Source: Buchnera aphidicola (Meitanaphis flavogallis) | Lineage (GTDB): Bacteria > Pseudomonadota > Gammaproteobacteria > Enterobacterales > Enterobacteriaceae | Assembly: GCA_039830035.1 (NCBI GenBank) | Contig: CP140038.1 | Span: 193,397 to 257,396 of the forward strand | Length of the DNA: 64,000 bases | Direction: 5' to 3' | Shown: piece by piece, positions 4,100 through 59,398 of the stretch | Position numbering within the stretch: the first letter of the stretch is position 1 | How the letters are laid out: each line of letters begins with the position of its first letter | The notes under the pieces: model-generated | Seen by the model: only the letters and a program-made list of their open reading frames with translations | Database searches by the model: none | What the model was told of the DNA's origin: nothing | Program-made: the position numbers and the translations under genes

Positions 4100-4767
4100 A
4101 TGAGTAATTGTATCATGAATTGGAAAGATGTATTAAAAGAAGAAAAAAAAAATTATATTTTATTAGTATTATTAAAAATCTTGCTAATATCAGACAAACT
4201 AAAATAGTATATCCTCCTAAACATGAGGTATTTAATGCTTTTTCATTAACAAATTTTTCTAATATAAAAGTAGTTATTATTGGTCAAGATCCATATTTTA
4301 AAAAAGGTCAAGCGAATGGATTAGCGTTTTCTGTGCAAAAAAATGTTAAAATTCCTCCCTCTTTAGTTAACATACGAAAAGAATTAGTTAATGATATAGG
4401 TAAAAATTTTTTATTTCAAAGTGGATGTCTTAAAAATTGGGCTCGTCAAGGTGTATTTTTATTAAATTCTGTTTTAACAGTAGAATCAAATAAACCCGGT
4501 TCTCATTTTAAATTAGGATGGGAAAATTTTACTAATAAAGTTATAAAAATTATTAGCGATTATCATACAGGAGTTATTTTTTTGTTATGGGGATCATATG
4601 CTAAAAAAAAAATAGCACATATTTGTATTCGCAAACATCATATTTTATTGGCATCGCATCCATCACCGTTATCATCTTATCACGGTTTTTTTGGATGCCG
4701 CCATTTTTCAAAGACAAATTTTTTATTAAAAAAACAGAATAAAACTCCAATTAATTGGTTTATATGA
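4100..4767 (+). CDS. ung: Uracil-DNA glycosylase, with the frame broken at an A10 tract near the 5' end
   Basis: The track ORF 4108-4767 carries GQDPYFKKGQANGLAFSV and HPSPLS motifs. The conserved Ung N-terminus (MSNCIMNWKDVLKEEKK, compare E. coli MANELTWHDVLAEEKQ) is in a different frame, starting at ATG 4100. The two frames meet at A10 (4143-4152). Confidence 0.85.
4143..4152 (+). repeat. A10 homopolymer at the ung frameshift site
   Basis: Counted directly: gaag + 10 a + ttatat. One extra A (or two fewer) joins the frames to read EEKKKLYFISII. Confidence 0.9.
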
Positions 4768-6417: not shown

Positions 6418-6587
6418 TAGTAATCAATATATAAATGTTTTTTAGTGTGAGTGATAAAATTATTCTTTAGAAGAACATAGTATTTTACGTAGTAAATACA
6501 TACATAAAAACTTAAATACACATTATTAATGTTTGATCGAATAATATGAATTTTTTTTGCATTTAAGATGGGATATTTTAGTATATA

Positions 6588-6944
6588 TGGAGCTGGCGGG
6601 ATTCGAACCCGCGTCCAAAATTTTTACGACTTCAGTACTACATGCTTAGTCTATTATATTTAATTAATCTATAAACGTATAGACACATTATAAATTTTTT
6701 CTTATTATATTTTTTTTTAACGACTAAAATTTATAAGTATAATTTTAATACGCGATCTCTTATTTTTTGATCCTGTTTTCTTTTTAAGAGAAAAAAGAAT
6801 CAGGAAGCTTTAGTTTAACTTATTAAGCTGCTAAAGCGTAGTTGTTATTTTTTGCTACTATATTTTACGGCTTTTATCGAGGCAAACCGTTCCTCGGCAT
6901 GCACTTTAGTTTTCAATAATTTTGTCGAATCCAAAATCAGCCCC
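6588..6944 (-). ncRNA. ssrA: tmRNA (SsrA), one-piece
   Basis: The minus-strand 5' end is GGGGCTGATTTTGGATTCGAC...GTGCATGCCGAGG. The 3' end is GGACGCGGGTTCGAATCCCGCCAGCTCCA. The tag reading frame GCA AAA AAT AAC AAC TAC GCT TTA GCA GCT TAA TAA encodes AKNNNYALAA. Confidence 0.95.
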
Positions 6945-15680: not shown

Positions 15681-16613
15681 ATTTACAATATTCCTGAAGA
15701 AAATATATAAGAAAAGCCCACACTTTGCAAAAGAGTAAGCTCTTTTTATGTATATAGCTTAGTTTGAACTAATTTTAAATGCATTTTTTGGAATTAATAT
15801 ATGTATATTTTTGAATAAAAATTGTACATTTTTATTCTTAGGTATATCAATTGTATTTAATGATAATTTTTTAATTTAAAATGTATTGAACTATTGTGAT
15901 AGTGCATGACGAATTTATTATTTAATATATTATCATATCTATAATAAAAATATTTTTTATTTCATGAAATATACAAGACATTTAATTAAATGTTTTTCAT
16001 ATGATAAAAATTTTACTTTTAAAAATATTTTATATTATATGTCTTCAAAATAAAGTTTAAATTTTAATTATTACTAGCGATGTTTCATTGTTGATATTAT
16101 TGTTATAATAAAAAGTAATACAAAAAATAATAGTATGTTTTAGTTTTTTTAATTTTTGTGAATAATTTATAATGAGTTATTAATGTTTAATATAAAATTT
16201 GTTTTTTTTAATGATCTTTTTTAGTTTTAGAAACGATTTTATTTTGAATAAACAACAAAAATTTTGTAAAATTTAGAAAAAATATTTATTTCAAGAATAT
16301 TATAATGATGAGGATATTATTAATTTGGAATTTAATGTGAATAAAATATTAAAATTATATACGCTAAAATTTGCGTCATCTTATATTATGAAACAAGTAT
16401 GAATATTAAAGAGCTAAAATTTGTGTAGATTTTTTTATTAGTTTTTTATTTAAAATAATTTTATAATAAATTATACAATCAATTATATTAAATTATATTA
16501 TTTTTTATATTATAAGTATAATAAAATTAAAATAATTTGGACTTATATAATATGATTTGGGATTTTCTATAAGGATAGAGTATGACTTTCGTGCAATGTT
16601 AACATAGTATTAG

Positions 16614-16640
16614 AGTGAAACGGGTTATGTCCCGTTCACT
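16614..16640. terminator. GC-rich hairpin just downstream of dksA (possible terminator or processing site)
   Basis: The stem agtga(a)acggg / cccgttcact has 10 bp with one bulge and a 6 nt loop. It lies 20 nt beyond the dksA stop. There is no clear U-tract on the dksA strand. Confidence 0.4.
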
Positions 16641-16659
16641 ATAATATTTTATATGAATT

Positions 16660-17115
16660 TTATCCCAATATTTGTTTTTTTCTAATTTCTGCTAATGTTT
16701 TGCAGTCTATACATAAATTAGCAGTAGGTCTTGCTTCTAATCTACGTATTCCAATTTCTACTCCGCATGATTCGCAATATCCAAAATCATTTTCTTCTAC
16801 TTTTTTTAAAGTTTTTTCTATTTTTTCTATTAATTTTCTTTCTCTATCTCGATGGCGCAATTCAAAGCTAAATTCTTCTTCTTGTACAGCACGATCAATG
16901 GGATCTGGAAAATTCGTAGTTTTTTCTTGTATATACAATTTTTTTTTAGGTATATCGTTCTTTAATTGAGTAACCCAAGCAAGAAGAATTTTTTTAAAGT
17001 GATTGATTTGTTTGGTGTTCATATATTTTTCGTTTTTTTTATTTTCATAAGGTTGTACTCCCGCCATAAATAGTATACTCAAGGAAGATACTTTTTTATC
17101 TTTTTCTTTTTGCAT
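16660..17115 (-). CDS. dksA: RNA polymerase-binding transcription factor DksA
   Basis: 151 aa ORF that is near-colinear with E. coli DksA ([28 protein letters not shown], and the [25 protein letters not shown] zinc finger). Confidence 0.96.
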
Positions 17116-28785: not shown

Positions 28786-30057
28786 ATGGATATTGAAATT
28801 AAAATTCCTGATATTGGAGTGGATGTAGTCGAAGTTATTGAGATTTTAGTTAAAATAGGGGATACGGTAAAAAAGGACGATGCTTTAATAACAGTGGAAG
28901 GGAAAAAAGTATCTATGGAAGTGCCATCTACTCATTTTGGTGTTGTAAAGTCCATCTTAGTAAATATAGGACATAAAGTAAAAACTGGTTCTTCGATTGC
29001 TTTTCTAACATTGTTGGATAATTTTAATATACTGAATGAAAAACAAAATATGTGTTTATATAATACAGAATTTAAAAATAAAACTAATTTTTCTAATCAT
29101 GAAATATTTAAAATATATCGAAATAAAAAAGAAACGTTAGTCCATGCCACTCCTATCATTAGGAGGTTAGCTAGAGAATTAAATGTTAATTTAGATAATG
29201 TGATAGGAAGTGGAAGAAAAGGTCGAATTATCAGAGCAGATATCATGTCATATATTAATAAAGAAGAAATAAAACATAAAGATGACTCTTATATAAAATA
29301 TGATACAAAAAACAATATGAAAAATTTTGTTAAATATGATTCTCATGAGTCTAATGATGTTTCAGAGTTATATTTAACTAATATGCAGGTACAATCTGGT
29401 AAAAATTTATTTAAAAGTTGGTCTATAGTTCCTCATGTAACTCAATTTGATGATGCGGATATTACGGACTTAGAAAAATTCAGAAAAAGCTATAATTCTA
29501 ATTTAGATAATCATAATATTAATTCTAAATTGACTGTATTAGTTTTTGTAATTAAGGTAGTAGCAAAGTCATTAAAAATTTTTCCTAAATTTAATAGTAC
29601 TTTATGTACTAAAATCAAAAAAAAAGTAATATTAAAACAAGATGTTAATATAGGAATTGCAGTGAATTCTAAAAATGGATTGTTAGTTCCTATTATTAAT
29701 AATGCAAATAATAAAAATTTAGTAGAGTTATCAGTTGAATTAACTTCGTTTTCAAAAAAGGCTGAGTTAGGAACTTTAAATATATCACATATGTCAGGTG
29801 GAGGTTTTACTATTTCCAATTTGGGTGGAATTGGTGGTACTGGATTTACGCCTATTATAAATTATCCTGAAGTAGCAATTCTAGGTATGTCTAAAGCTTT
29901 GATAAAACCATTTTGGAATGGTACAGAATTTATACCACGTTTAATGCTTCCGTTGTCTTTGTCTTATGATCATCGTGTTATTGATGGAGTAGAAGCTGTT
30001 TTATTTGTGAATTATGTTAAAAAATTATTGTCTGATATTAGGTTATTATTACTTTGA
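28786..30057 (+). CDS. aceF: Dihydrolipoamide acetyltransferase E2, with a single lipoyl domain
   Basis: 423 aa ORF. It has one lipoyl domain (TVEGKKVSMEVPS), a subunit-binding domain (ATPIIRRLARELNVNL) and the catalytic DHRVIDG motif. Confidence 0.93.
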   Translation: MDIEIKIPDIGVDVVEVIEILVKIGDTVKKDDALITVEGKKVSMEVPSTHFGVVKSILVNIGHKVKTGSSIAFLTLLDNFNILNEKQNMCLYNTEFKNKTNFSNHEIFKIYRNKKETLVHATPIIRRLARELNVNLDNVIGSGRKGRIIRADIMSYINKEEIKHKDDSYIKYDTKNNMKNFVKYDSHESNDVSELYLTNMQVQSGKNLFKSWSIVPHVTQFDDADITDLEKFRKSYNSNLDNHNINSKLTVLVFVIKVVAKSLKIFPKFNSTLCTKIKKKVILKQDVNIGIAVNSKNGLLVPIINNANNKNLVELSVELTSFSKKAELGTLNISHMSGGGFTISNLGGIGGTGFTPIINYPEVAILGMSKALIKPFWNGTEFIPRLMLPLSLSYDHRVIDGVEAVLFVNYVKKLLSDIRLLLL

Positions 30058-35586: not shown

Positions 35587-36306
35587 TTATTTCCATGCTA
35601 TTGCTATACCTGATTCATATCGTAAATCGATGTATTTTATTTTTTTTCTTTTGATTTTTTCTTCATATTTTAAAGTTTTCCAAATCATCATTAATTTTTT
35701 TAATTGAATAATATTATTTATTTTTCCTAGAGCTATTTCAATGTTGTTTTCAATTAATAGTTTCCATGAATGATAAGGTGTTATCGTAATAGATCTCAAT
35801 ATAACGTTATTTTTATTTAGTACATTTTTTATTTTTTCGTAATTTTTTAAAATTTCTTTTTCGCTATTTTTTGGTCCATAAAAATATGGAATGTTTTTAA
35901 TACTTTGTTTTTTTTTTATAATATGAGATATAATTTCTTTTTTATCTAATATATATTTGTCGTTCCAATATGCTACAGGAATAGTATTTACAATATGGAT
36001 TAGTAATGTATCTGGCCATTGTTTTTGAATTTTAATTTTTTTTATAAAAGTGAATTCTTTTAATTTATTTTTTATAAAAAAATTACATGGGAAAAAAAAA
36101 TTACATGAAGTTTTTAAGGATAAAATAAAATCTTTCATTTCTTTTCTATTTAAATAACTAAATTGTCCTGAAATTATAAAATGAGATAATTTTTTTTTAT
36201 ACCATTGTTTAGATAATTTTATAATTATGAGACTATTAAGTATTATAAAAACAATTAAAGATAATATTATAGTATATCTTAATAAGACTAGTTTTTTTTT
36301 TGACAT
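35587..36306 (-). CDS. ftsQ: Cell division protein FtsQ
   Basis: 239 aa ORF with an N-terminal transmembrane helix and a POTRA region. QKQWPDTLLIHIVNTIPVAYWND aligns with E. coli [20 protein letters not shown]. Its position between ddlB and ftsA also fits. Confidence 0.85.
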   Translation of the reverse strand: MSKKKLVLLRYTIILSLIVFIILNSLIIIKLSKQWYKKKLSHFIISGQFSYLNRKEMKDFILSLKTSCNFFFPCNFFIKNKLKEFTFIKKIKIQKQWPDTLLIHIVNTIPVAYWNDKYILDKKEIISHIIKKKQSIKNIPYFYGPKNSEKEILKNYEKIKNVLNKNNVILRSITITPYHSWKLLIENNIEIALGKINNIIQLKKLMMIWKTLKYEEKIKRKKIKYIDLRYESGIAIAWK

Positions 36307-39849: not shown

Positions 39850-41033
39850 TACAAACCTTGACAAAATTTATTTTTTATTCTTGTTTCAAAGTCTATACGT
39901 AATAATATAGAAATAGCAATAGAAATAATTAATAAACTGGATCCACCATAACTAATGAGTGGTAATGTTAATCCTTTAGTTGGTAATATTCCCACAGTAG
40001 TACCTATGTTAATTAACGTTTGAGATACTAGCCATATTCCAATTGAAAAAGCAAAATAACCGGAAAAAAAATCGTTGTTTTTTAATGCGTTTTTTCCGAT
40101 ATTTATTGCCTTAAAAGAAATAAATAATATCATAGATAATATGATACAAACTCCACAATATCCTAATTCTTCTCCAATAATTGAGAAAATAAAATCAGTA
40201 TGCGCTTCAGGTAAATATTCTAATTTTTGAATAGAATGTCCTAAACCTACTCCAAAAAAATTTCCTCTACCTAAAGCCATCAATGATTGTGTGAGTTGAT
40301 AACCTTTTCCAAATGGATCTTTCCAAGGATTCCAAAATGATAATATTCGTTCACTACGATAAGGTGTAATTATTATTAATAGGATAGTAGTAATGATCCC
40401 TAAAAGTACAATAGGTATAAATTTCCAAATTTGGACTCCTGAAACAAACAATAAAGATAATACAGTTATGAAATATATAGCTACCGTTCCTAAATCAGGT
40501 TCTGTTAATAATAATATCGATATAATACTTATTATTCCTAAAGGTTTTAAAAAACTCCAAAAACTATTCATGATTTCATAACGTTTTTGTGATAAATAAT
40601 TTGATAAATAACAAAAAACAGTAAGTTTAGATAGTTCTCCGGGTTGTATATGTATGAAACTTATTTTTATCCATCTAAAAGAACCATTAATAGGAGTACT
40701 TATTATTAACACGAGTAGTAACATAATGATAGAAATTAAAAGCATTTTGGTACTATAAATTTTCCAAAACATGATAGGAGTTTTAAGAAATATTTTAGTT
40801 AAAAAAAGAACTAATATTAAATATATTATTTCTTTTTTCGTAAAAAATAATAAATCTCCATATATATGACTAGCTATTGGTATAGAAGCAGAAGTTACCA
40901 TAATTAATCCGATTAATAGTAAACTTATAGTACACCATACTAACTGAGAATCGTATAATTTTGGTTCGTAGTGCGTTTTATTTTTTTTTAAAATTTTTTT
41001 TACTGTGTTTAATAATAAATACTTTATTTTCAT
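39849..41033 (-). CDS. ftsW: Peptidoglycan glycosyltransferase / lipid II flippase FtsW (SEDS family)
   Basis: 394 aa polytopic membrane protein (FQPGELSKL-like IQPGELSKL, PEAHTDFIFSIIGEELG, LPLISYGGSS). Its start overlaps the murD stop as ATGA. Confidence 0.93.
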   Translation of the reverse strand: MKIKYLLLNTVKKILKKNKTHYEPKLYDSQLVWCTISLLLIGLIMVTSASIPIASHIYGDLLFFTKKEIIYLILVLFLTKIFLKTPIMFWKIYSTKMLLISIIMLLLVLIISTPINGSFRWIKISFIHIQPGELSKLTVFCYLSNYLSQKRYEIMNSFWSFLKPLGIISIISILLLTEPDLGTVAIYFITVLSLLFVSGVQIWKFIPIVLLGIITTILLIIITPYRSERILSFWNPWKDPFGKGYQLTQSLMALGRGNFFGVGLGHSIQKLEYLPEAHTDFIFSIIGEELGYCGVCIILSMILFISFKAINIGKNALKNNDFFSGYFAFSIGIWLVSQTLINIGTTVGILPTKGLTLPLISYGGSSLLIISIAISILLRIDFETRIKNKFCQGL

Positions 41034-42360
41034 GAATATAGTTCTTCTATTAACTTTACAAAAGTATTACCACGTTCTTCAAAATTAGAAAATTGATCTA
41101 AACTACTACAAGAAGGAGATAATAATACTACATCACCAGATTTTACTATGTTTTTTATAAAATGTATTACGTTTTCTAATGTATTGAAACATATTGATTT
41201 TTTTGGATATAATGAGAAAAGTATTTTTTTACTTCTTCCATAACAATAAATAATTATTTTTTCATCTTTTAAATAAGGTTTTAATAAAGAAAAATTGGCT
41301 AATTTCCCATCTCCTCCTAATATTAATCTTATTTTCCCTTTTACATAAGGTAAAATATTGTTGATTGCTGATTGCGTACTTCCAATGTTTGTAGATTTAG
41401 AGTCATTAATCCATGTTATATTGTTTTTTTTATATGTTAGTTGAAATCTATGAGGTAATCCTAAAAATTCTTTTAATGCTACTAAGCTAGTGTAAATATT
41501 AACTTTTAAAATATGAACTATTGATAAAGCAGATAATGCATTAATATAATTATGTTGACCTGATATAAGTAATTTATCAACATTTAATAATTTTTCTTTG
41601 TTATAGCATAGCCATACATTACGATTTTTTCTACATAGATTATATTCTCCTTTATCAATTCCAAATGTAATGTTAGGTTGTTTTTTAATTTTCGCATTAA
41701 ATGATAAATGGTCTTCTAAATTTAAAATAGATACTTCGGCTTGATTATATATTTTTAACTTATGTTTGACATATTCTGTAATACCTAATGGATATCGATC
41801 CATATGATCTGAACTGATATTAAGTACAGTAGCAACTTTTGCTTTTAAATTCAAAGTAGTTTCTAGCTGAAAACTGGATAATTCTAATATGTATAATTCT
41901 GAGGGATCATTAAGTATATTTAATGCAGGAATTCCTATATTACCACCTACGCGTACTTTAAATCCAGCTAGTTGTAGTATATTTCTTACCATCATAGTCA
42001 CTGTACTTTTTCCATTTGAACCAGTAATAGCAATTATCGGGGTTTTGGTTTCTCTGACAAATAATTCAATATCTCCAATTATTTCAATTTTGTTTTTTTT
42101 GGCATATATTAACGCTGGATGAAATAATTGTATACCAGGACTTGTGATAATTAAATCGGATTCTTGAATCCATGGATAATATATTGAACCTACATGATAT
42201 TGTATATTTTTTAAACATTGTACATTATGGATGTATTTGGGATTTTTGTTAAAGTCCATAATTTTAGGATAAATATTTCGCGATATAAAAAAATGTAGAC
42301 AGGATATGCCTGTTAATCCCATTCCAAATATTAGTATTTTTTTTTATAATAATTATACAT
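41030..42360 (-). CDS. murD: UDP-N-acetylmuramoylalanine--D-glutamate ligase, with the frame broken at an A9 tract in codons 6-8
   Basis: The track ORF (41030-42322) starts mid-motif at MGLTGISC. Upstream in the same frame is KKILIFG, preceded by a stop. A different frame has ATG 42360 (MYNYYKKK), 2 nt after the mraY stop. Joined at A9, the sequence reads MYNYYKKKILIFGMGLTGISC, compare E. coli [21 protein letters not shown]. Confidence 0.85.
42337..42345 (-). repeat. A9 (sense-strand) homopolymer at the murD frameshift site
   Basis: Nine T on the plus strand, counted directly. One extra A restores the frame. Confidence 0.9.
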
Positions 42361-42362
42361 TT

Positions 42363-43442
42363 CTAATTGACCTTAAATATGAAAGAACATCCTAGCAACA
42401 TAAACACTAAAGATATAATCCAAAATCTTACTGCTATTTTTGGTTCTGGGCAACCTTTTAATTCGTAGTGATGATGAATAGGTGTCATTTTGAATATTCT
42501 TTTTTTCTTTAACTTAAAGTATGTAACTTGAATTATGACTGATATAGTTTCAAATATAAAAATTCCACTCATAATAAAAAATATTATTTCTTGGTGTAGT
42601 AGTATTGCTATTATTCCTATCACCCCTCCTAAAGGTAGAGACCCTACATCACCCATAAATATTTGTGCTGGATAGGCATTAAACCATAAAAATCCTAATC
42701 CTGATCCTATAACGGCTGAGCAAAGAATAGTTAATTCTGCAATACTAGGAATATATACAATATTAAAATGTGTTGAATGGTGTAAATTTCCAGAAATAAA
42801 TGATAGTAGATATAATCCTATAGTTATTAAGATGACAGGAACAATAGCTAACCCATCTAATCCGTCTGTTAAATTTACAGCGTTACTAAAACCTATCAAG
42901 ATAATATATGACAAAAATATATGTATTATACCTATGTTTATAACAATATTTTTTTGGATAGGGCATATTAATTGAATTATAAAATTGTTTTTATTGTTAT
43001 AATAAATTAAAATAATAACAAGAATAGTAATTATAGATAAAAAAAATAATTTCCATTGAGGTCGTAAACCTGTAGACGTGTTAAAGTAAATTTTTTTATA
43101 ATCATCTATGAATCCTACTATGCCAAATCCTATTAAAATCATTAGTGCATACCATATGTATATGTTTGATAAATTAGACCATAATAAAGTAGATATAATG
43201 ATAGAAGATAATATAAGTATTCCTCCCATAGTAGGTGTATATTTTTTGTTAATATGTATTTTAGGTCCATTACTTCGAATAGTTTGATACATTTGGTGTT
43301 TTTTTAAAAATTTGATTAGGTATGATCCTACTATTAGAGAAAAAAATAGTGACGTTAGTAAACTAATAATAGAACGATAAATTAAATATGATGTCTTATC
43401 AAAATTTGTGTGAAAATAGTATTTAATAATGAATTCAATCAT
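42363..43442 (-). CDS. mraY: Phospho-N-acetylmuramoyl-pentapeptide transferase
   Basis: MIEFIIKYY...TPTMGGILIL...NAVNLTDGLDGLA...GDVGSLPLGG motifs. ATG 43442 has GAGGAA 8 nt upstream. The track starts at TTG 43457. Confidence 0.94.
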   Translation of the reverse strand: MIEFIIKYYFHTNFDKTSYLIYRSIISLLTSLFFSLIVGSYLIKFLKKHQMYQTIRSNGPKIHINKKYTPTMGGILILSSIIISTLLWSNLSNIYIWYALMILIGFGIVGFIDDYKKIYFNTSTGLRPQWKLFFLSIITILVIILIYYNNKNNFIIQLICPIQKNIVINIGIIHIFLSYIILIGFSNAVNLTDGLDGLAIVPVILITIGLYLLSFISGNLHHSTHFNIVYIPSIAELTILCSAVIGSGLGFLWFNAYPAQIFMGDVGSLPLGGVIGIIAILLHQEIIFFIMSGIFIFETISVIIQVTYFKLKKKRIFKMTPIHHHYELKGCPEPKIAVRFWIISLVFMLLGCSFIFKVN

Positions 43443-44811
43443 AATTACATTCCTCAACTAATTTTTTTACTATTCTTTCTAGATTTTCGCTTCTAGATCC
43501 TTTAATTAAAATTGTAATTTTTTCATACATAAAAATTTTTTTAGTTAAATCTTTAATTAGTGTATTAATATTAGTGTAATGGTTTCCTTTTTTACTATTA
43601 ATACTGATAGATTTACTTAATTTTCCAATGCTCATAACTTCGTTTATATCAGATATGTAAATGACATTACCAATTATTTTATGATACATAGTACTCATTT
43701 TTCCTAATTCAGACATATCACCAGATACAAAAATTTTATATCCAGGCATGTTTTCTAACACTTTAATTGCTACAATCATTGATGCAACATTAGCATTGTA
43801 AGTATCGTTTATAATAGTTTTATGTTGGCTTAGTGTGATAGTTTCTAATCTACCTGAAAGTATTGGAATTTTAGATAATCCGAGTTGAATGCATTGAAGT
43901 GGAATGTTTAATGTTATTGCTATAGCGGCTGCAGCTAGAGCATTAGAAATATTGTGAAATCCAAGCAAAGGCAAATTAACATTTATAACTCCATTCGGAG
44001 AATGTAGAATGAAGGATGAGCCTGTATTATCAATAACGATATTGCTTGCAAAGAATTGACTTTTTTTTTTTATTGAAAACCAAATAATGTTTTGGCTGTT
44101 TATGTTTTTTTTCCATCTTGACCAATGATGACTATCAGCATTAAATATAGCTGTACCAGTTTTAGGTAATGTACAAAGAATTTCTTGTTTTGATTTAGAG
44201 ATTCCTAATAAAGATTTAAATCCATCTAAATGCGAATAATAAATGTTGTTTATTAATGCAATATTAGGATTTGTTAATTTTGTTGCATATAAAATTTCTT
44301 TAGGATGATTAGCTCCTATTTCAATAACAGCATATTTATATGATAGATCAAGATTTAGTAGAGTTAATGGTACTCCAATATTATTGTTAAAATTTTTAAA
44401 GGTAGATAAAGTTTTTCCATAACATTGCAAGATAGAAGTAGTAATTTCTTTTACAGATGTTTTTCCAGAAGATCCAGTTAATGCTATAATACTAGCATTA
44501 CTTTGTTGTCTAATCCAAAATGCTATATTTCCTAGTGCTAAAGTAGTATTTTGCACAACTATTTGTGGTAGCTTGATATCAAGTTTTTTTTCTAATACTA
44601 CTGCTGTAGCTCCTTTTTTCATTGCTGCATAAACGAAATTATGTGCATCGAAATTTTTTCCGATCAAAGCAATAAATAAACATCCTGGAGTAATTGTTCT
44701 TGAATCAGTACTTATAGCATGAAAAATTAAGTTATTTATTTTTACATTATTTTTGTTAAAAAAATAACCTTTTGTGATACGACATATTTGATAAAAAGAT
44801 ATTGGGATCAT
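43435..44811 (-). CDS. murF: UDP-N-acetylmuramoyl-tripeptide--D-alanyl-D-alanine ligase
   Basis: 458 aa ORF with the ALTGSSGKTSVKE P-loop. It is Mur-ligase colinear and contains an in-frame A11 tract (44061-44071). Confidence 0.93.
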   Translation of the reverse strand: MIPISFYQICRITKGYFFNKNNVKINNLIFHAISTDSRTITPGCLFIALIGKNFDAHNFVYAAMKKGATAVVLEKKLDIKLPQIVVQNTTLALGNIAFWIRQQSNASIIALTGSSGKTSVKEITTSILQCYGKTLSTFKNFNNNIGVPLTLLNLDLSYKYAVIEIGANHPKEILYATKLTNPNIALINNIYYSHLDGFKSLLGISKSKQEILCTLPKTGTAIFNADSHHWSRWKKNINSQNIIWFSIKKKSQFFASNIVIDNTGSSFILHSPNGVINVNLPLLGFHNISNALAAAAIAITLNIPLQCIQLGLSKIPILSGRLETITLSQHKTIINDTYNANVASMIVAIKVLENMPGYKIFVSGDMSELGKMSTMYHKIIGNVIYISDINEVMSIGKLSKSISINSKKGNHYTNINTLIKDLTKKIFMYEKITILIKGSRSENLERIVKKLVEECNYD

Positions 44812-44813
44812 AT

Positions 44814-46297
44814 TTATTTTTCCAATAGTTTTTTAATTGTTTCATAGTCAGAAAAATAATAAGTTTTATTTTTTATTATTTGATATTTTTCATGACCTTT
44901 TCCTAATACAACTACACAGTCATTGATGTTAGCATTCATTATGGCAAATTTGATTGCTTGTTTTCGATCCAATATAATATGTATATTTTTTTTATTTTGA
45001 ATGTTTTGTGTGATATCTTTTATAATTTCTTTTGGATTCTCGTTTCTGGGATTGTCATTAGTTAGAACGATTTTATTAGCAATTTTTTCAGAAATCTTTC
45101 CCATTAGGGATCTCTTTAATTTGTCTCTATTTCCTCCGCATCCAAATACACACCATACATTGTGATGATATATTTTACGAATAGTTTGTAATACATTTTT
45201 AAAAGCGTCTTCATTATGTGCATAATCAATGATAATGTTTGGTTTATTTGGAATTTTAAGAGATTGCATTCTTCCAGGAACGGCTATTATATATTCGCAT
45301 ACGTCTATCAAGCAAGATAGTGAAAACCCCAAGTTTAATAATGCCACTAAAGCTAGTAGTAAATTAGTAACGTTAAAGTTTCCAATTAATTGGCTTTTTA
45401 ACAATCCTTTTCCCCAACTAGATTTAAAGTAAATGTAAGTATAATTTGTATTATATATTATACGATATGCGTGTACCCATCGTTTAAATAATGAGTAATT
45501 AAAATTTTTATTTATACTTACGACGATAGTTCTTTTTTTAGATAATTTTTTTGTCCATAGTTTTCCAATATGATTATCTATATTAATTATGAATGTTTTA
45601 ATTTTGTTTTTAGAAAAAAAAGTCCATTTTGCTTTAATATAGTTTTCTATAGTTTTGTGATAGTCTAAGTGGTCTGATGTAATGTTTGTCAAAATTGCCA
45701 TAGAAAAATTTAAATTTGACACTCTATGTTGTATGATTCCATGCGAAGATATTTCCATAGCAATTGTTTTTATATCGTTTATTAACATTTCTTTTAAGAA
45801 TTTTTGTATATTTATAGGAGAATCAGTTGTATTTACAGATGGTTTTAGATCGTTGTAAGTTCCATTCCCTAGACTTCCCATAATTCCTATTCTTTGGTTT
45901 AATAAGTAATTCCATTGAGCAATAATATGAGTCACAGTACTTTTTCCATTAGTTCCAGTGACTCCAATAAGTGTTAATTCTTCATTTACTTCATAATATC
46001 TATTGGATATTTTGGATAAATTTTTAGATAATTTTAAAAAATAAATTACTGGAATGTGTTTATTTTTATATGTTATATGTCCATGATATTCTTTTTTTTT
46101 GTTTCGCAAAGAATAGCTATTGCTCCATTATCAATAGCTTTTTTTATAAATTGTCGTCCATGAAATATATTTCCTTGTAGTGCGCAGAATAAGTTTCCTG
46201 TAGTAACTTTTCGACTATCTGATGCTATTCCAGTTATATTATATGATTGTGTTATATTCATCCAAGGTTGTAATAGGGTTTGTAGGTTATGTTTCAT
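44814..46297 (-). pseudogene. murE: UDP-N-acetylmuramoyl-L-alanyl-D-glutamate--2,6-diaminopimelate ligase, split by a frameshift at an A9 tract (possibly rescued by slippage)
   Basis: Two track ORFs (46073-46297 and 44814-46109) overlap by 37 nt in different frames. The first, MKHNLQTLLQPWM...IASDSRKVTTGNLFCALQG...AIAILCETKKK, matches the MurE N-terminus. The second carries GVTGTNGKST, DNPRNE and the rest. The break is at A9 (46092-46100). Confidence 0.9.
46092..46100 (-). repeat. A9 (sense-strand) homopolymer at the murE frameshift site
   Basis: Nine T on the plus strand between c46091 and g46101. One extra A gives ETKKKEYHGHITYKNKHIPVIYF. Confidence 0.9.
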
Positions 46298-47729
46298 TTT
46301 TACTCCAAAATTTTGTGATGTATTTAATATATAAATAAATTATCAGGTTGAATATTAATAATTTTTAATGCAAAACTCATAATTGTACTAAATACTGGAG
46401 CTGAAATAGTTCCTCCATAGTATTGTCCTGCTCGTGGATCATTAATCATCACAAGCAAAGAAAATTGTGGATTGCTAATTGGAGCAAGTCCTACTGCATA
46501 TGATACGTATCTATTTACGTATTTTCCGTTTGAATTGACTTTTTTTGCAGTACCCGTCTTTACAGCAACTTTATAGCCTTTAATGGCTGCTTTTACTCCT
46601 ACGCCTCCTGGCTGAGTTACTGATTCGAGCATGTTTAATACGATTTTTACTAAAGATTTTGAAAATATTCGTTTTTCGTTGTTTTTGTTATTAGTTTTAA
46701 TAATAGATAATGGTTTGTATAATCCATATCTACCCATAATTGTGTATACGTTAACCAATTGTAGTGGTGTAACCATCAATCCATATCCAAAAGAAAATGT
46801 TACTTTATCTAAGTTAGACCAATGTTTTTTTTTGGGGTAAATTCCTTTTTTTTCTCCTATCAATCCTGAATTTGTCGATTTTCCTAAGCCAAATCTAGAA
46901 TAAATATCAATTAATTCAGATTCTGACATAGATAGTGCTATTTTAGATACACCTGTATTGCTTGATTTTTTCAAAATATCGGTAACTGATAATTGTCTGT
47001 TATATGAAACATCTTTTATTACGTGTTTATCTATTATAAAAGGTGTTGTGTCAATAATAGATTTTGGAGTTATTATTTTTTTTTGCAATGCTTTCATAAT
47101 TACCATTGGTTTAACTGTTGATCCAGGCTCAAATACGTCAGTCACGGCTCTGTTACGAATTAAATCCATAGATACTTTTTTTAAATTATTTGGATTATAT
47201 GTAGGGCTATTGACCATAGCTAGGATTTCTCCAGTTTTAATATTTGTTAAAATAGCCGTTCCAGATTGAGCTTTATGAAAACTAACAGCATGACTTAATT
47301 CGCGATATATAATCGTTTGTAATCTTATGTCTATACTAAGATTTATATTGCGTGGCGCATTTTTTTTAATTAATGAAACATTTTCAATAATGTTTCCAAA
47401 CTTGTCGGTTCTAATTTTTCTTTTACCTGGAGCTCCTTGAAGTATTTTGTTAAAACTCTTTTCTATTCCTTCGATGCCTATTCCATCTGTGTTGGTGAAT
47501 CCAATTAATTGCGAAACTATTTTTCCAGAAGGGTAGTATCGCTTAAAATCTTCAACAATATATACACCTGGTAAGTTTAATTTTTTTATGTATTCTCCAA
47601 TTTCTGGACTAACTTTTCGTGCTAGATATGTAAAACGATTGTTTTTAAAATGATTAATTTTATATATAATTTTTTCTAGAGGAGTGGATAGTACTTTCGA
47701 TAATGCTTTCCACTTTGCATTTATAACTA

Positions 47730-47739
47730 TTTTTTTTTT
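47730..47739 (-). repeat. A10 (sense-strand) homopolymer at the second ftsI frameshift site
   Basis: Ten T on the plus strand. As written, the middle frame ends ...TCA AAA AAA AAA TAG. One extra A continues as ATA GTT ATA AAT GCA AAG TGG. Confidence 0.9.
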
Positions 47740-47988
47740 GAAAAAAATATTTTTGGATCAATACAAATGTTATTCGTAGGTATACTTAGAGCTAATATAT
47801 TTCCTGATCTATCCTTAATAGTTCCTCTTGAATTTGTTTCTACTTGTATTCTTGATGATCTTAAATCACTTTCTTTAATTAGTTGCTTAGTTTTAAATAA
47901 TTGTAATATAGTTATTTTAAGTAAAATTATGATGATAGAAATAGTAATTATACTAAGTAGTGTGATAAGTCGATGATTGAAATAACAG

Positions 47989-47998
47989 TTTTTTTTTT
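47989..47998 (-). repeat. A10 (sense-strand) homopolymer at the first ftsI frameshift site
   Basis: Ten T on the plus strand. The start frame reads CTA AAA AAA AAA CTG and stops 12 codons later. One fewer A reads LKKNCYFNHRLITLL, which includes the transmembrane helix. Confidence 0.9.
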
Positions 47999-48066
47999 AG
48001 ATAACTAAATGGAATGTTGTTGAAAAAATATTTCATGAATTTGTAAATTTCCTATTGTTTCAGTAA

Positions 48067-51851: not shown

Positions 51852-52873
51852 TTAGAAATCTTTTTTTAAAAAAAAATAAAATTTAGGTGAAATCCATGTA
51901 AATAATTTAGATCCGTGTTTTTTTATCAAACACACTGCTAATTTTTCTTTAATAGCTAACTGTTTAGCTTTTTCAAATCCTAATATCATTAATCCTGTAT
52001 CCCATGCATCTGATTCTAATGCTGATTTTGTGATTACACTCACTGAAACTAAATCAGTTTTAGTGGGATACCCTGTAATAGGATCAAGTAAATGCACAAT
52101 TTTTTTTCCTTTTAGATAATAATAATTTCTATAAGTGCCAGATGTACTAATGGCATGATTTTGTAATTTTACAATCATATGGATGTTAATTTTTTTGTCT
52201 GTTGGTTTTTGTATAGCTATTATTTTAGGATTAGAAAAATTGTTTTTACTATGAGTAGTAATTGCTCCTCCAACAGAGATAACAAAATCTTCTATTCCTT
52301 TTTTTATAAGTAGTTCTTTTAAATGATCAGCAATGAAACCTTCTCCTAGCGTAGAAAAATCTAATGTTATTTTTTTTATGTTTTTTTTTAAGTAATATTT
52401 TTTATTTTTTTTAATAAGTTTTATATTTTTTAATCCTGTGAACAACAATGCATTTTTAATTGTTTTCAATTTAGGAATTTTATTTGGAGGTTTTTTTGGC
52501 CCGAAACCCCATATATTGACTAATGTTCCTATAGTAACGTCTAAAGCATAAGATGTTTTTTTTCCTATTAATAATGCTGTTAACATTATTTTGGCAAAGT
52601 TTTTGCTAATATGTTGAGGTTTAGTACCGTAATAGTTATTAAATTTTAAAATTTTAGAATTTTTTTCCCAAAAAGATAATTCTTTGTTATCATAATACAA
52701 TTGTTTATTGATTTCTTTTATTAATTTTTTATTATTCGCGTATGTATTGATAAGATTTATTTGCCATGTTGTTCCCATAGTTTTTCCAGACAAATAAACT
52801 GTTTTTGTTTGCTCTTTTTTATATAAATTTATGTATAGAAATATAAGTAAAAAAAAAATATTCTTAAAAACAT
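51852..52873 (-). CDS. apbE: FAD:protein FMN transferase ApbE, with its likely N-terminal signal/anchor reached only through a T10 frameshift
   Basis: The track ORF (51852-52793, TTG start) carries LSGKTMGTTW, DVTIGTLVNIWGFGP, STLGEGF, SGTYRNYY and DAWDTGLMILG motifs. The same frame is open a further 28 codons upstream (KYVFKNIFFLLIFLYINLYKKEQTKTVY) but has no start codon. ATG 52873 (AGGA 13 nt upstream) is in another frame, and the two frames meet at T10 (52849-52858). Confidence 0.8.
52849..52858 (-). repeat. T10 (sense-strand) homopolymer at the putative apbE N-terminal frameshift
   Basis: Ten A on the plus strand. One extra T gives MFLRIFFFLLIFLYINLYKKEQTKTVYLSGKTMGTTW. Confidence 0.85.
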
Positions 52874-58666: not shown

Positions 58667-59398
58667 ATGAAAAAAAAAAATAATAAAGTATTTAAATTTA
58701 AACGTATATTAATAAAATTGAGTGGTGAATCTTTACAAGGTAGTAACAAATTTGGAGTAGATGTAGATGCATTAAATTGTATTATAAAAGAAATAAAAGA
58801 TATTGCGAATTTAGGGATACAAGTAGGTATTGTTGTCGGTGGAGGAAATATATTTCGAGGAAAGAAATTAAAAAATTTTGGTATTAATAAAATTGTTTCT
58901 GATAATGTAGGTATGTTATCTACTATTATTAATGGATTGATATTGTGTGATTCCATGAAAAAAATGAATCTTAATGCGCATTTAATGTCTTCAATTCCAA
59001 TTGGTTCAATATGCGAAATTTATCACTATGAAAAAGCTATAAATTGGTTGAAAAATAGATATGTAGTAATATTTTCTGGAGGTTTAGGAAATCCATGTTT
59101 TACTACAGATTCAGCAGCTTGTTTACGAGCAATAGAAATAAAAGCTGATATTATTTTAAAAGGCACTAAAGTTAACGGAGTATATTCTAGTGATCCAAAA
59201 AAAAATATTAATCCGGTATTATATAAAACAATAACCTATGATGAAGCATTAACTAAAGAATTGCAAGTTATGGATTTATCTGCTTTTATATTAGCTCGAG
59301 ATCACAAATTGCCAATTTGTATTTTTAATATATATAATCCAGGGATTTTACGCCGGATTGTACAAGGTAAACGAGAAGGAACGTTGATTAAATTTTAG
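58667..59398 (+). CDS. pyrH: UMP kinase
   Basis: 243 aa ORF with RILIKLSGESL and GGGNIFRG motifs. Codons 2-5 are an in-frame A11 tract. Confidence 0.95.
   Translation: MKKKNNKVFKFKRILIKLSGESLQGSNKFGVDVDALNCIIKEIKDIANLGIQVGIVVGGGNIFRGKKLKNFGINKIVSDNVGMLSTIINGLILCDSMKKMNLNAHLMSSIPIGSICEIYHYEKAINWLKNRYVVIFSGGLGNPCFTTDSAACLRAIEIKADIILKGTKVNGVYSSDPKKNINPVLYKTITYDEALTKELQVMDLSAFILARDHKLPICIFNIYNPGILRRIVQGKREGTLIKF

Follow-up and report, generated by a model that had tools for sequence, protein, structure and literature searches.

Purifying selection persists on peptidoglycan genes with conserved homopolymer frameshifts in Buchnera of Rhus-gall aphids

Slippage at poly(A) tracts was reported by Tamas et al. 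(2008, PNAS) to rescue frameshifted cell-wall genes of Buchnera, and later summaries of that work put the corrected fraction of transcripts at 12–50% (PMC5009743) or at about 30% (PMC3017870). In Blochmannia, frameshifts are conserved between species without degradation of the genes, which evolve at normal rates, and independent events or reversions have occurred at the same tract, as in erfK and ytfM (Wernegreen, Kauppinen & Degnan 2010, MBE; PMC3017870, PMC4389277). Related motifs operate in dnaX of Escherichia coli (A AAA AAG), in dnaX of Thermus and in insertion sequence (IS) elements, with runs of at least 9 A or T acting on RNA polymerase and A AAA AAG on the ribosome (PMC1088944, PMC5009743). 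Here, we describe homopolymer-associated frame breaks in a 64-kb window, by which we mean the whole stretch of DNA analyzed, from the genome of Buchnera aphidicola of the Rhus-gall aphid Meitanaphis flavogallis (CP140038), with emphasis on four breaks in three adjacent peptidoglycan genes of the dcw cluster, murD, murE and ftsI.

These genes share with the systems of Tamas et al. the organism group, one-base indels in runs of at least 9 A, otherwise intact sequences and membership among the cell-wall genes of Buchnera. As far as those systems are described in the summaries cited, the present case differs from them in aphid lineage (Fordini, Melaphidina) and in the sites affected, is known from genomes alone, and comprises up to four breaks in three adjacent genes, with ftsI carrying two that need opposite corrections. 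The likeness to Blochmannia extends to conservation between species, the lack of degradation, normal rates and recurrence at the same tract, whereas the accounts cited for that symbiont list 4–8 genes per genome spread across functions (dnaX, dnaG, pth, hisH) and the breaks described here are concentrated in peptidoglycan genes of dcw. The dnaX and IS systems yield two useful products at a set ratio, usually with the help of stimulators; in contrast, only the corrected product makes sense here, no stimulators were found, and the sites flip in and out of frame among lineages. Each hallmark of the 2008 and 2010 cases that a genome can reveal, namely an indel in a long run, conservation, purifying selection and upkeep of the tract, was found.

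We consider it probable (roughly 78%) that the breaks are old, conserved one-base frameshifts in still-functional genes that are expressed via slippage at poly(A) or poly(T). Such rescue has been described before, and the present case adds an instance that the authors of the genomes did not describe; their 2024 paper makes no mention of pseudogenes, frameshifts, murE or ftsI (PMC11188193).

The source genome was assembled with SPAdes from Illumina NextSeq skim data and annotated with Prokka (PMC11188193). In the window, which has a G+C content of 24–29%, 53 genes were annotated using NCBIfam and Pfam. Frame breaks were located by reading the minus strand and by screening all homopolymers; an automatic screen that merged open reading frames (ORFs) recovered murE, the second ftsI tract and two gene-junction false positives, and a second screen was used for breaks at 5′ ends. 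The syntenic dcw region (~20 kb) of relatives was obtained via homologue searches and exact-protein look-ups from Buchnera of two Kaburagia rhusicola subspecies (ensigallis, L002, and rhusicola, L003), Floraphis choui (L004, L005), Baizongia (BBp, L006), Chaetogeoica (L007, L008), Schlechtendalia peitan (L009) and two Nurudea (L010, L011), together with a close Logan assembly (L001) and a contig from a JGI metagenome (L012). As a control, the gyrA–dksA region was compared in Floraphis (L093 for ung) and S. peitan (L094 for ung). The host phylogeny used was (Nurudea, (Melaphis, (Schlechtendalia, (Floraphis, (Meitanaphis + Kaburagia))))) (PMC6395032).

Frame breaks in the window and their conservation

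Six homopolymer-associated frame breaks are present in the window, one each in ung, murD, murE and apbE and two in ftsI, and all lie inside A9, A10 or T10 runs. Five require the gain of one nucleotide and one, at ftsI tract 1, the loss of one. The first-pass annotation of this DNA had claimed six breaks, five of them repaired by insertion, with four clustered between 41030 and 48036; the homopolymer screen reproduced these counts, and the four breaks in murD, murE and ftsI are all real and at the positions given. Its notion of a bias toward +1 keeps the count of five out of six, but this excess is not significant alone (binomial p = 0.22). Single-base edits of the tracts produce uninterrupted ORFs of 570 aa for FtsI, 494 aa for MurE and 443 aa for MurD, as well as a further repaired ORF of 340 aa, and repaired FtsI, MurE and MurD each match an NCBIfam model in one stretch across the break sites, above the curated cutoff. 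The other genes of the dcw cluster, which runs on the minus strand from ftsZ (33113) to rsmH (49314), are intact in the window, as is mrcB; the same had been stated earlier for twelve dcw genes, of which eleven were named.

Coding A or T runs of at least 9 nt number 38 (33 sense A, 5 sense T) rather than the approximately thirty first estimated, and 32 of them are in frame. All in-frame sense-A runs encode at least Lys-Lys (as KKK or xKKN); about half encode Lys-Lys-Lys, so that the initial description of these runs as mostly in frame stands, whereas its extension to Lys-Lys-Lys holds only for that half. Among runs of at least 10 nt, 4/10 break the frame, and in-frame A10 and A11 runs are also present. 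Compared with a dinucleotide shuffle, A9 is in modest excess (52 occurrences vs 34 ± 10).

The gene for the PBP3 transpeptidase, ftsI (46324–48036, minus strand), is divided among three frames that hold codons 1–16, an 82-codon membrane-helix segment and a 467-codon catalytic part. Tract 1 (47989–47998, minus strand) is a sense A10 at codons 13–16 that needs the removal of one nucleotide (or the addition of two), and tract 2 (47730–47747, minus strand, with the A10 at 47730–47739) reads T7-C-A10 in the sense direction, is followed by TAG and needs one additional nucleotide; a predicted tract-spanning peptide of FtsI contains FFSKKKIVINAK. Repaired FtsI matches PRK15105 over 17–567/18–568 with 754 bits (cutoff 737), and the catalytic motifs SxxK, SxN and KTG are intact, as STVK, SSN and KTGT. 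The 82-codon frame downstream of tract 1 is without ATG, GTG or TTG, and reading it therefore requires the shift. At tract 1, the A10 is common to this genome and L001–L003 only, and Floraphis has an in-frame A7; the break is younger than the split from Floraphis. The A10 of tract 2 is identical in L001–L005 and L012; BBp has no tract at this position, and Nurudea carries T8A11, which is exactly the in-frame (+1) version.

The UDP-MurNAc-tripeptide synthetase gene murE (44814–46297, minus strand) is divided into an N-terminal part of 65 codons and a C-terminal part of 425 by a sense A9 followed by G (46092–46100, minus strand, approximately codon 66), where one nucleotide must be added and the zero frame reads A AAA AAG. 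Repaired MurE matches PRK00139.1-1 over 3–493/2–490 with 589 bits against a cutoff of 586, and the predicted peptide across the tract is CETKKKEYHGH. The same A9 is found in L001–L005, Chaetogeoica is also broken at this place, with an A10, and BBp and S. peitan have an interrupted tract that stays in frame.

In murD, which encodes UDP-MurNAc-L-Ala--D-Glu ligase (41030–42360, minus strand), the start codon at 42360–42358 is separated from the main frame by a sense A9 at codons 6–8 (42337–42345, minus strand) that needs one additional nucleotide, or a −1 ribosomal shift; the zero frame is ATG TAT AAT TAT TAT AAA AAA AAA TAC TAA. The repaired protein matches TIGR01087 over 8–439/1–440 in one stretch. 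The A9 is identical in L001–L005, in one Nurudea (L010) and in L012, S. peitan has an in-frame allele of the tract, and the run is an in-frame A7 in BBp and Chaetogeoica. The five codons between the tract and an internal ATG, ILIFG, are conserved, with mostly synonymous changes, which argues for read-through rather than internal initiation. The gene-caller's choice of that internal ATG (42322, giving 430 aa) was considered less likely, because it would delete ILIFG, the conserved first beta-strand of the nucleotide-binding fold, which is kept in the post-tract frame in all lineages.

Thus, ftsI tract 2 and the murE and murD tracts have the same length and the same break in this genome, in L001–L003 and in Floraphis, and BBp is intact at all compared sites. 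Tract lengths follow the host phylogeny, which indicates that the breaks are inherited and older than the split between Floraphis and Kaburagia; judged from the genomes compared, the frameshifts predate the separation of Meitanaphis, Kaburagia and Floraphis, ftsI tract 1 being the younger exception. Lengths identical to those in Floraphis were found for 5/6 frame-breaking tracts compared with 4/22 in-frame coding tracts of at least 9 nt (Fisher p = 0.007; p = 0.0016 without ftsI tract 1): once out of frame, a tract is kept uninterrupted at its exact length. Several of these tracts also have in-frame alleles, namely ftsI in the sister lineage Nurudea, murD in that of S. peitan and the A11 of murF in the present genome, a pattern which indicates that tracts move between in-frame and out-of-frame lengths and that the ORFs nonetheless persist. 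The murF tract (44061–44071, minus strand) is A11 and in frame both here and in K. r. ensigallis, A10 in L001, L003 (K. r. rhusicola) and L010, and A9 in L009 and L012; the A10 and A9 alleles split murF at approximately codon 250 in these relatives, where it is a frameshift hotspot and the most labile tract of the cluster.

Selection on the broken genes and their distribution

The ratio of nonsynonymous to synonymous substitution rates (dN/dS) was estimated by the Nei-Gojobori method against close relatives, the divergence of which accumulated entirely after the frameshifts arose. The values were 0.07–0.08 for the C-terminal part of ftsI and 0.08–0.15 for its middle segment, which is thus constrained despite having no canonical start of its own, 0.16–0.19 for the C-terminal part of murE, and 0.09–0.13 for murD. 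The resulting range for the broken genes, 0.07–0.19, compares with 0.06–0.30 for intact neighbours, including ilvI (0.10–0.11), murC (0.10–0.14), murG (0.15–0.18), mraY (0.19–0.20) and ftsQ (0.26–0.30), and with 0.03–0.31 for the remaining segments; in deep comparisons, broken and intact genes alike gave 0.2–0.3. A value of 0.31 for full-length ftsI, obtained by tblastn with the repaired query, was an artefact of a mis-framed high-scoring segment pair (HSP) at codons 16–94, and the segment-wise values were used instead. Under an AT-biased neutral simulation, approximately 12 stops per ORF would be expected at d = 0.125 and approximately 20 at d = 0.25 (range ~12–37), compared with none observed in the broken-gene ORFs in any lineage of this comparison. 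The broken genes are not decaying: purifying selection persists and there is no further degradation. The comparison of murD, murE and ftsI with their neighbours across relatives, which the first-pass annotation had proposed, therefore places the broken genes among the intact ones. The dN/dS of 0.07–0.19, the zero stops where at least 12 were expected, the intact FtsI motifs and the age of the breaks contradict its suggestion of relaxed selection and of a peptidoglycan pathway in the first stages of loss.

The same annotation held that out-of-frame tracts are concentrated in cell-envelope genes. Within the window, the frame is broken by 4/11 long tracts in peptidoglycan genes and by 2/27 elsewhere (p = 0.047), breaks occur in 3/10 peptidoglycan genes and 2/43 others (p = 0.041), and at least four of the six breaks fall within 7 kb in a permutation test with p = 0.046; this clustering is marginal and post hoc. 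Relatives add further breaks, all at A or T runs of 8–11 nt: murF (A9), mraY (T9), an internal murD site (A10) and murG (A10) in S. peitan; murE at approximately codon 31 (A10), murF (A10), murG (A9) and the 5′ tract of murD (A9) in Nurudea; ftsI tract 2, murF, mraY, murG and the murD 5′ tract in L012; and murF (A10) in L001 and L003. By contrast with these genes, ilvI, ilvH, rsmH, ftsL, ddlB and murC are intact in every lineage, ftsW is intact in all of them bar a possibly shortened 5′ end in Nurudea, and the 14 non-peptidoglycan genes of the gyrA–dksA control are intact in Floraphis and S. peitan. Across lineages, about 10 of about 13 frameshift sites lie in peptidoglycan genes (binomial p = 0.0015), a count made by eye that treats sites as independent and takes these genes as approximately 33% of the surveyed length. 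As a lineage-level trend, which becomes convincing only with the relatives, the enrichment therefore stands, and it is not exclusive, because the DNA repair gene ung, the single gene outside cell-wall functions to have a conserved break, carries one that is equally old.

In ung, a plus-strand A10 (4143–4152) needs one additional nucleotide for the conserved N-terminus (MSNCIMNWKDVLKEEKKK) and the main ORF to be read as one, and Floraphis (L093) and S. peitan (L094) share both the A10 and the split; for the C-terminal part, dN/dS is 0.32–0.39, with no stops. An in-frame TTG at 4108 could start a protein from this gene (4100–4767) with a 15-residue nonsense N-terminus, and in each of the three lineages compared it is the other frame that encodes the conserved N-terminus (NWKDVL..). 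The sixth break is at the 5′ end of apbE, where a sense T10 (52849–52858, minus strand) needs one nucleotide more to connect the putative start at ATG 52873 and a signal-peptide-like N-terminus to the main ORF. L002 and L004 likewise have T10 here, L001 and L003 have T11, and the two Chaetogeoica assemblies differ from each other in apbE; a second short T run just past the ATG also varies among relatives, between T4 and T5. The two near-identical K. rhusicola subspecies (L002 vs L003) thus differ by one base both at murF (A11 vs A10) and at apbE (T10 vs T11), which reflects either very fast flipping or heterogeneity within the samples that the assembler resolved differently.

Expression of the broken genes

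How the genes are expressed, and at what yield, is taken from the literature on comparable systems. RNA polymerase would stutter on 9–11 consecutive A or T, such that some mRNAs gain one extra base, or less often lose one, and the frame is restored; unaided slippage of the ribosome on A AAA AAA or A AAA AAG may contribute. The expected outcome is full-length MurD, MurE and FtsI at lower yield. If an in-frame A10–A11 tract already yields mixed transcripts, a flip of the frame would alter output only a few-fold, a change that may be nearly neutral for enzymes needed in small amounts, so that tract lengths could wander between the two states. For a tract that has left the frame, selection would keep both the downstream ORF and the uninterrupted tract, the latter because it is needed for rescue. 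On this account, peptidoglycan genes would be the main, though not the sole, class that tolerates frameshifts in Buchnera of Rhus-gall aphids. Transcription errors measured in Buchnera are in keeping with the direction of the corrections: 151/157 insertions fell in homopolymers, almost all of them single-base insertions in A or T runs, compared with 16/57 deletions (PMC5574713), and this insertion bias offers a natural reason why the surviving breaks mostly need +1.

Several observations weigh against rescue by slippage of still-functional genes. In Buchnera LSR1, Traverse and Ochman saw no transcription error that restored a frame (PMC5574713). The N-terminal 65 codons of murE gave dN/dS values of 0.44–1.19 in the closest pairs (0.26 vs Floraphis); the excess of replacements reaches beyond the tract and the sample is small, and we read the elevation as that of a fast-evolving domain. 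The N-terminal HSP of murG in L012 holds two stops and may reflect real decay, and the 5′ end of murE in the same contig is obscured by Ns. The weakest point is ftsI, where two corrections of opposite sign are needed on one mRNA, and the yield of full-length protein could accordingly be only a few percent.

The most direct rival holds that these are incipient pseudogenes, with peptidoglycan synthesis under relaxed selection and homopolymer frameshifts as the first inactivating hits. The number of peptidoglycan genes affected, in sets that differ by lineage (murF, mraY, murD and murG in S. peitan; murE, murF and murG in Nurudea), would fit such a course, as would the stops in murG of L012 and the loss of most peptidoglycan genes in other Buchnera lineages (PMC11188193, PMC9116674). 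Selection tests largely refute it, and we regard it as highly improbable: after the frameshift, dN/dS stayed at 0.07–0.3, equal to intact neighbours, ORFs of more than 400 codons have acquired no stops or secondary indels in any lineage when at least 12 stops were expected, the catalytic motifs are intact, and it is the slippery tracts that are preferentially conserved. Errors of sequencing or assembly at homopolymers might be suspected of skim Illumina NextSeq data processed with SPAdes and annotated automatically. This explanation is ruled out for practical purposes, given that the same lengths recur in independent Logan assemblies and in six or more samples sequenced separately, that the assemblers differ, that tract conservation tracks the host phylogeny, that 32/38 long runs, including A10 and A11, are in frame, and that errors would have to run both ways.

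The other rivals concern the level at which the frame is restored. Buchnera is highly polyploid, and replication slippage could keep a minority of in-frame genome copies while the consensus shows the majority length. One-nucleotide differences between the Kaburagia subspecies (murF, apbE) and between the Chaetogeoica assemblies (apbE), along with the flipping of lengths among lineages, are compatible with such heterogeneity; we nevertheless hold it to be a poor candidate, since every assembly of the clade gives one and the same consensus at the tracts of ftsI, murE and murD and since it could only supplement RNA-level rescue, not replace it. Correction could also take place mainly in translation, through −1 ribosomal slippage on A AAA AAA or A AAA AAG (U UUU UUU in apbE). 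The zero-frame A AAA AAG of murE is the shift heptamer of E. coli dnaX (motif as cited in PMC1851650), A AAA AAA occurs in the zero frame of ftsI tract 2 and murD, a −1 shift would repair all five +1 breaks equally well, and the stop codons close after ftsI tract 2 and the murD tract could favour P-site slippage. This route appears quite unlikely to predominate: the 60 nt past each tract fold like shuffled sequence (z −1.55 to +1.0), giving no sign of a downstream RNA structure, no Shine-Dalgarno-like stimulator was evident upstream of the tracts on inspection by eye, ftsI tract 1 requires the opposite shift, and in the published cases from Buchnera and Blochmannia, as they are presented in the sources cited, correction occurs at the transcript level (PMC5009743, PMC3017870).

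A further proposal accepts slippage and adds a function: the peptidoglycan genes would be selectively kept out of frame as a hard-wired attenuator that holds murein synthesis low. The two tracts of ftsI would then form a double gate, with a −1 and a +1 slip on one transcript, and the tracts would serve as slow 'contingency loci' that retune wall output as hosts diverge. We consider this extension unlikely. The initial suggestion of slippage-dependent throttling has two parts: slippage-dependent expression is favoured by the conservation of tract length (5/6 vs 4/22, p = 0.007) together with published rescue, and the reduced output may be adaptive or merely tolerated.

Neighbouring loci and significance for symbiont cell walls

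Other features of the window include the tmRNA gene ssrA (6585–6944, minus strand; tag peptide AKNNNYALAA). Between thrA and dksA (15758–16660, ~900 nt) there is no ORF of at least 50 aa, and tblastn found no hpt in the window; hpt at this position is intact in Floraphis (177 aa), only a stop-containing remnant is left in S. peitan, and the gene appears to be lost from this genome. The cell division gene ftsQ (35587–36306) is present in those Melaphidina loci that reach far enough, namely this genome and L001–L005, and had no tblastn match in BBp or Chaetogeoica; its dN/dS (0.26–0.30) exceeds that of every other gene in the cluster, and it contains four in-frame runs of at least 9 nt. The match of the aceF product (28786–30057) to the E2 acetyltransferase profile begins only at profile position 209 of 637, which suggests a shortened protein, possibly with a single lipoyl domain. 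In pyrH, the start codon is followed by an in-frame, unbroken A11 (58667–58680, MKKKN...); no other sense-A run at the start of a gene in the window is longer.

Aphidini Buchnera offer a possible parallel. Symbionts scored as lacking murC, murE and murF still make peptidoglycan by EDA labelling, which was done on Buchnera of Rhopalosiphum maidis; the pipeline used in that study discarded coding sequences with frameshifts, and compensations other than slippage were proposed (Smith et al. 2022, PLoS Genet, PMC9116674). The likeness lies in mur ligases being scored as lost or pseudogenised, and a link to slippage is a lead only. An FtsI homologue search aimed at Aphidini returned only Macrosiphini, and when Buchnera MurF was aligned against genome contigs, the 80 matches listed were all from non-Buchnera Gammaproteobacteria.

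Of the nine dcw peptidoglycan genes, as many as four in a single genome studied here are 'broken' and are nonetheless clearly constrained. Annotation pipelines split or drop such genes, as Prokka did by splitting them in the source genomes, with the result that comparisons among symbionts can underestimate their capacity to make a cell wall. The Melaphidina genomes form a phylogenetic series of in-frame and out-of-frame alleles in ftsI, murE, murF, mraY, murD and murG that could serve as a gauge of slippage buffering, and the same series could test for a tie between host control of murein (amiD, ldcA, rlpA) and a low output of peptidoglycan enzymes by the symbiont. Should the attenuator proposal prove true and apply to the 'missing' mur ligases of Aphidini as well, it would explain how those symbionts build a wall.

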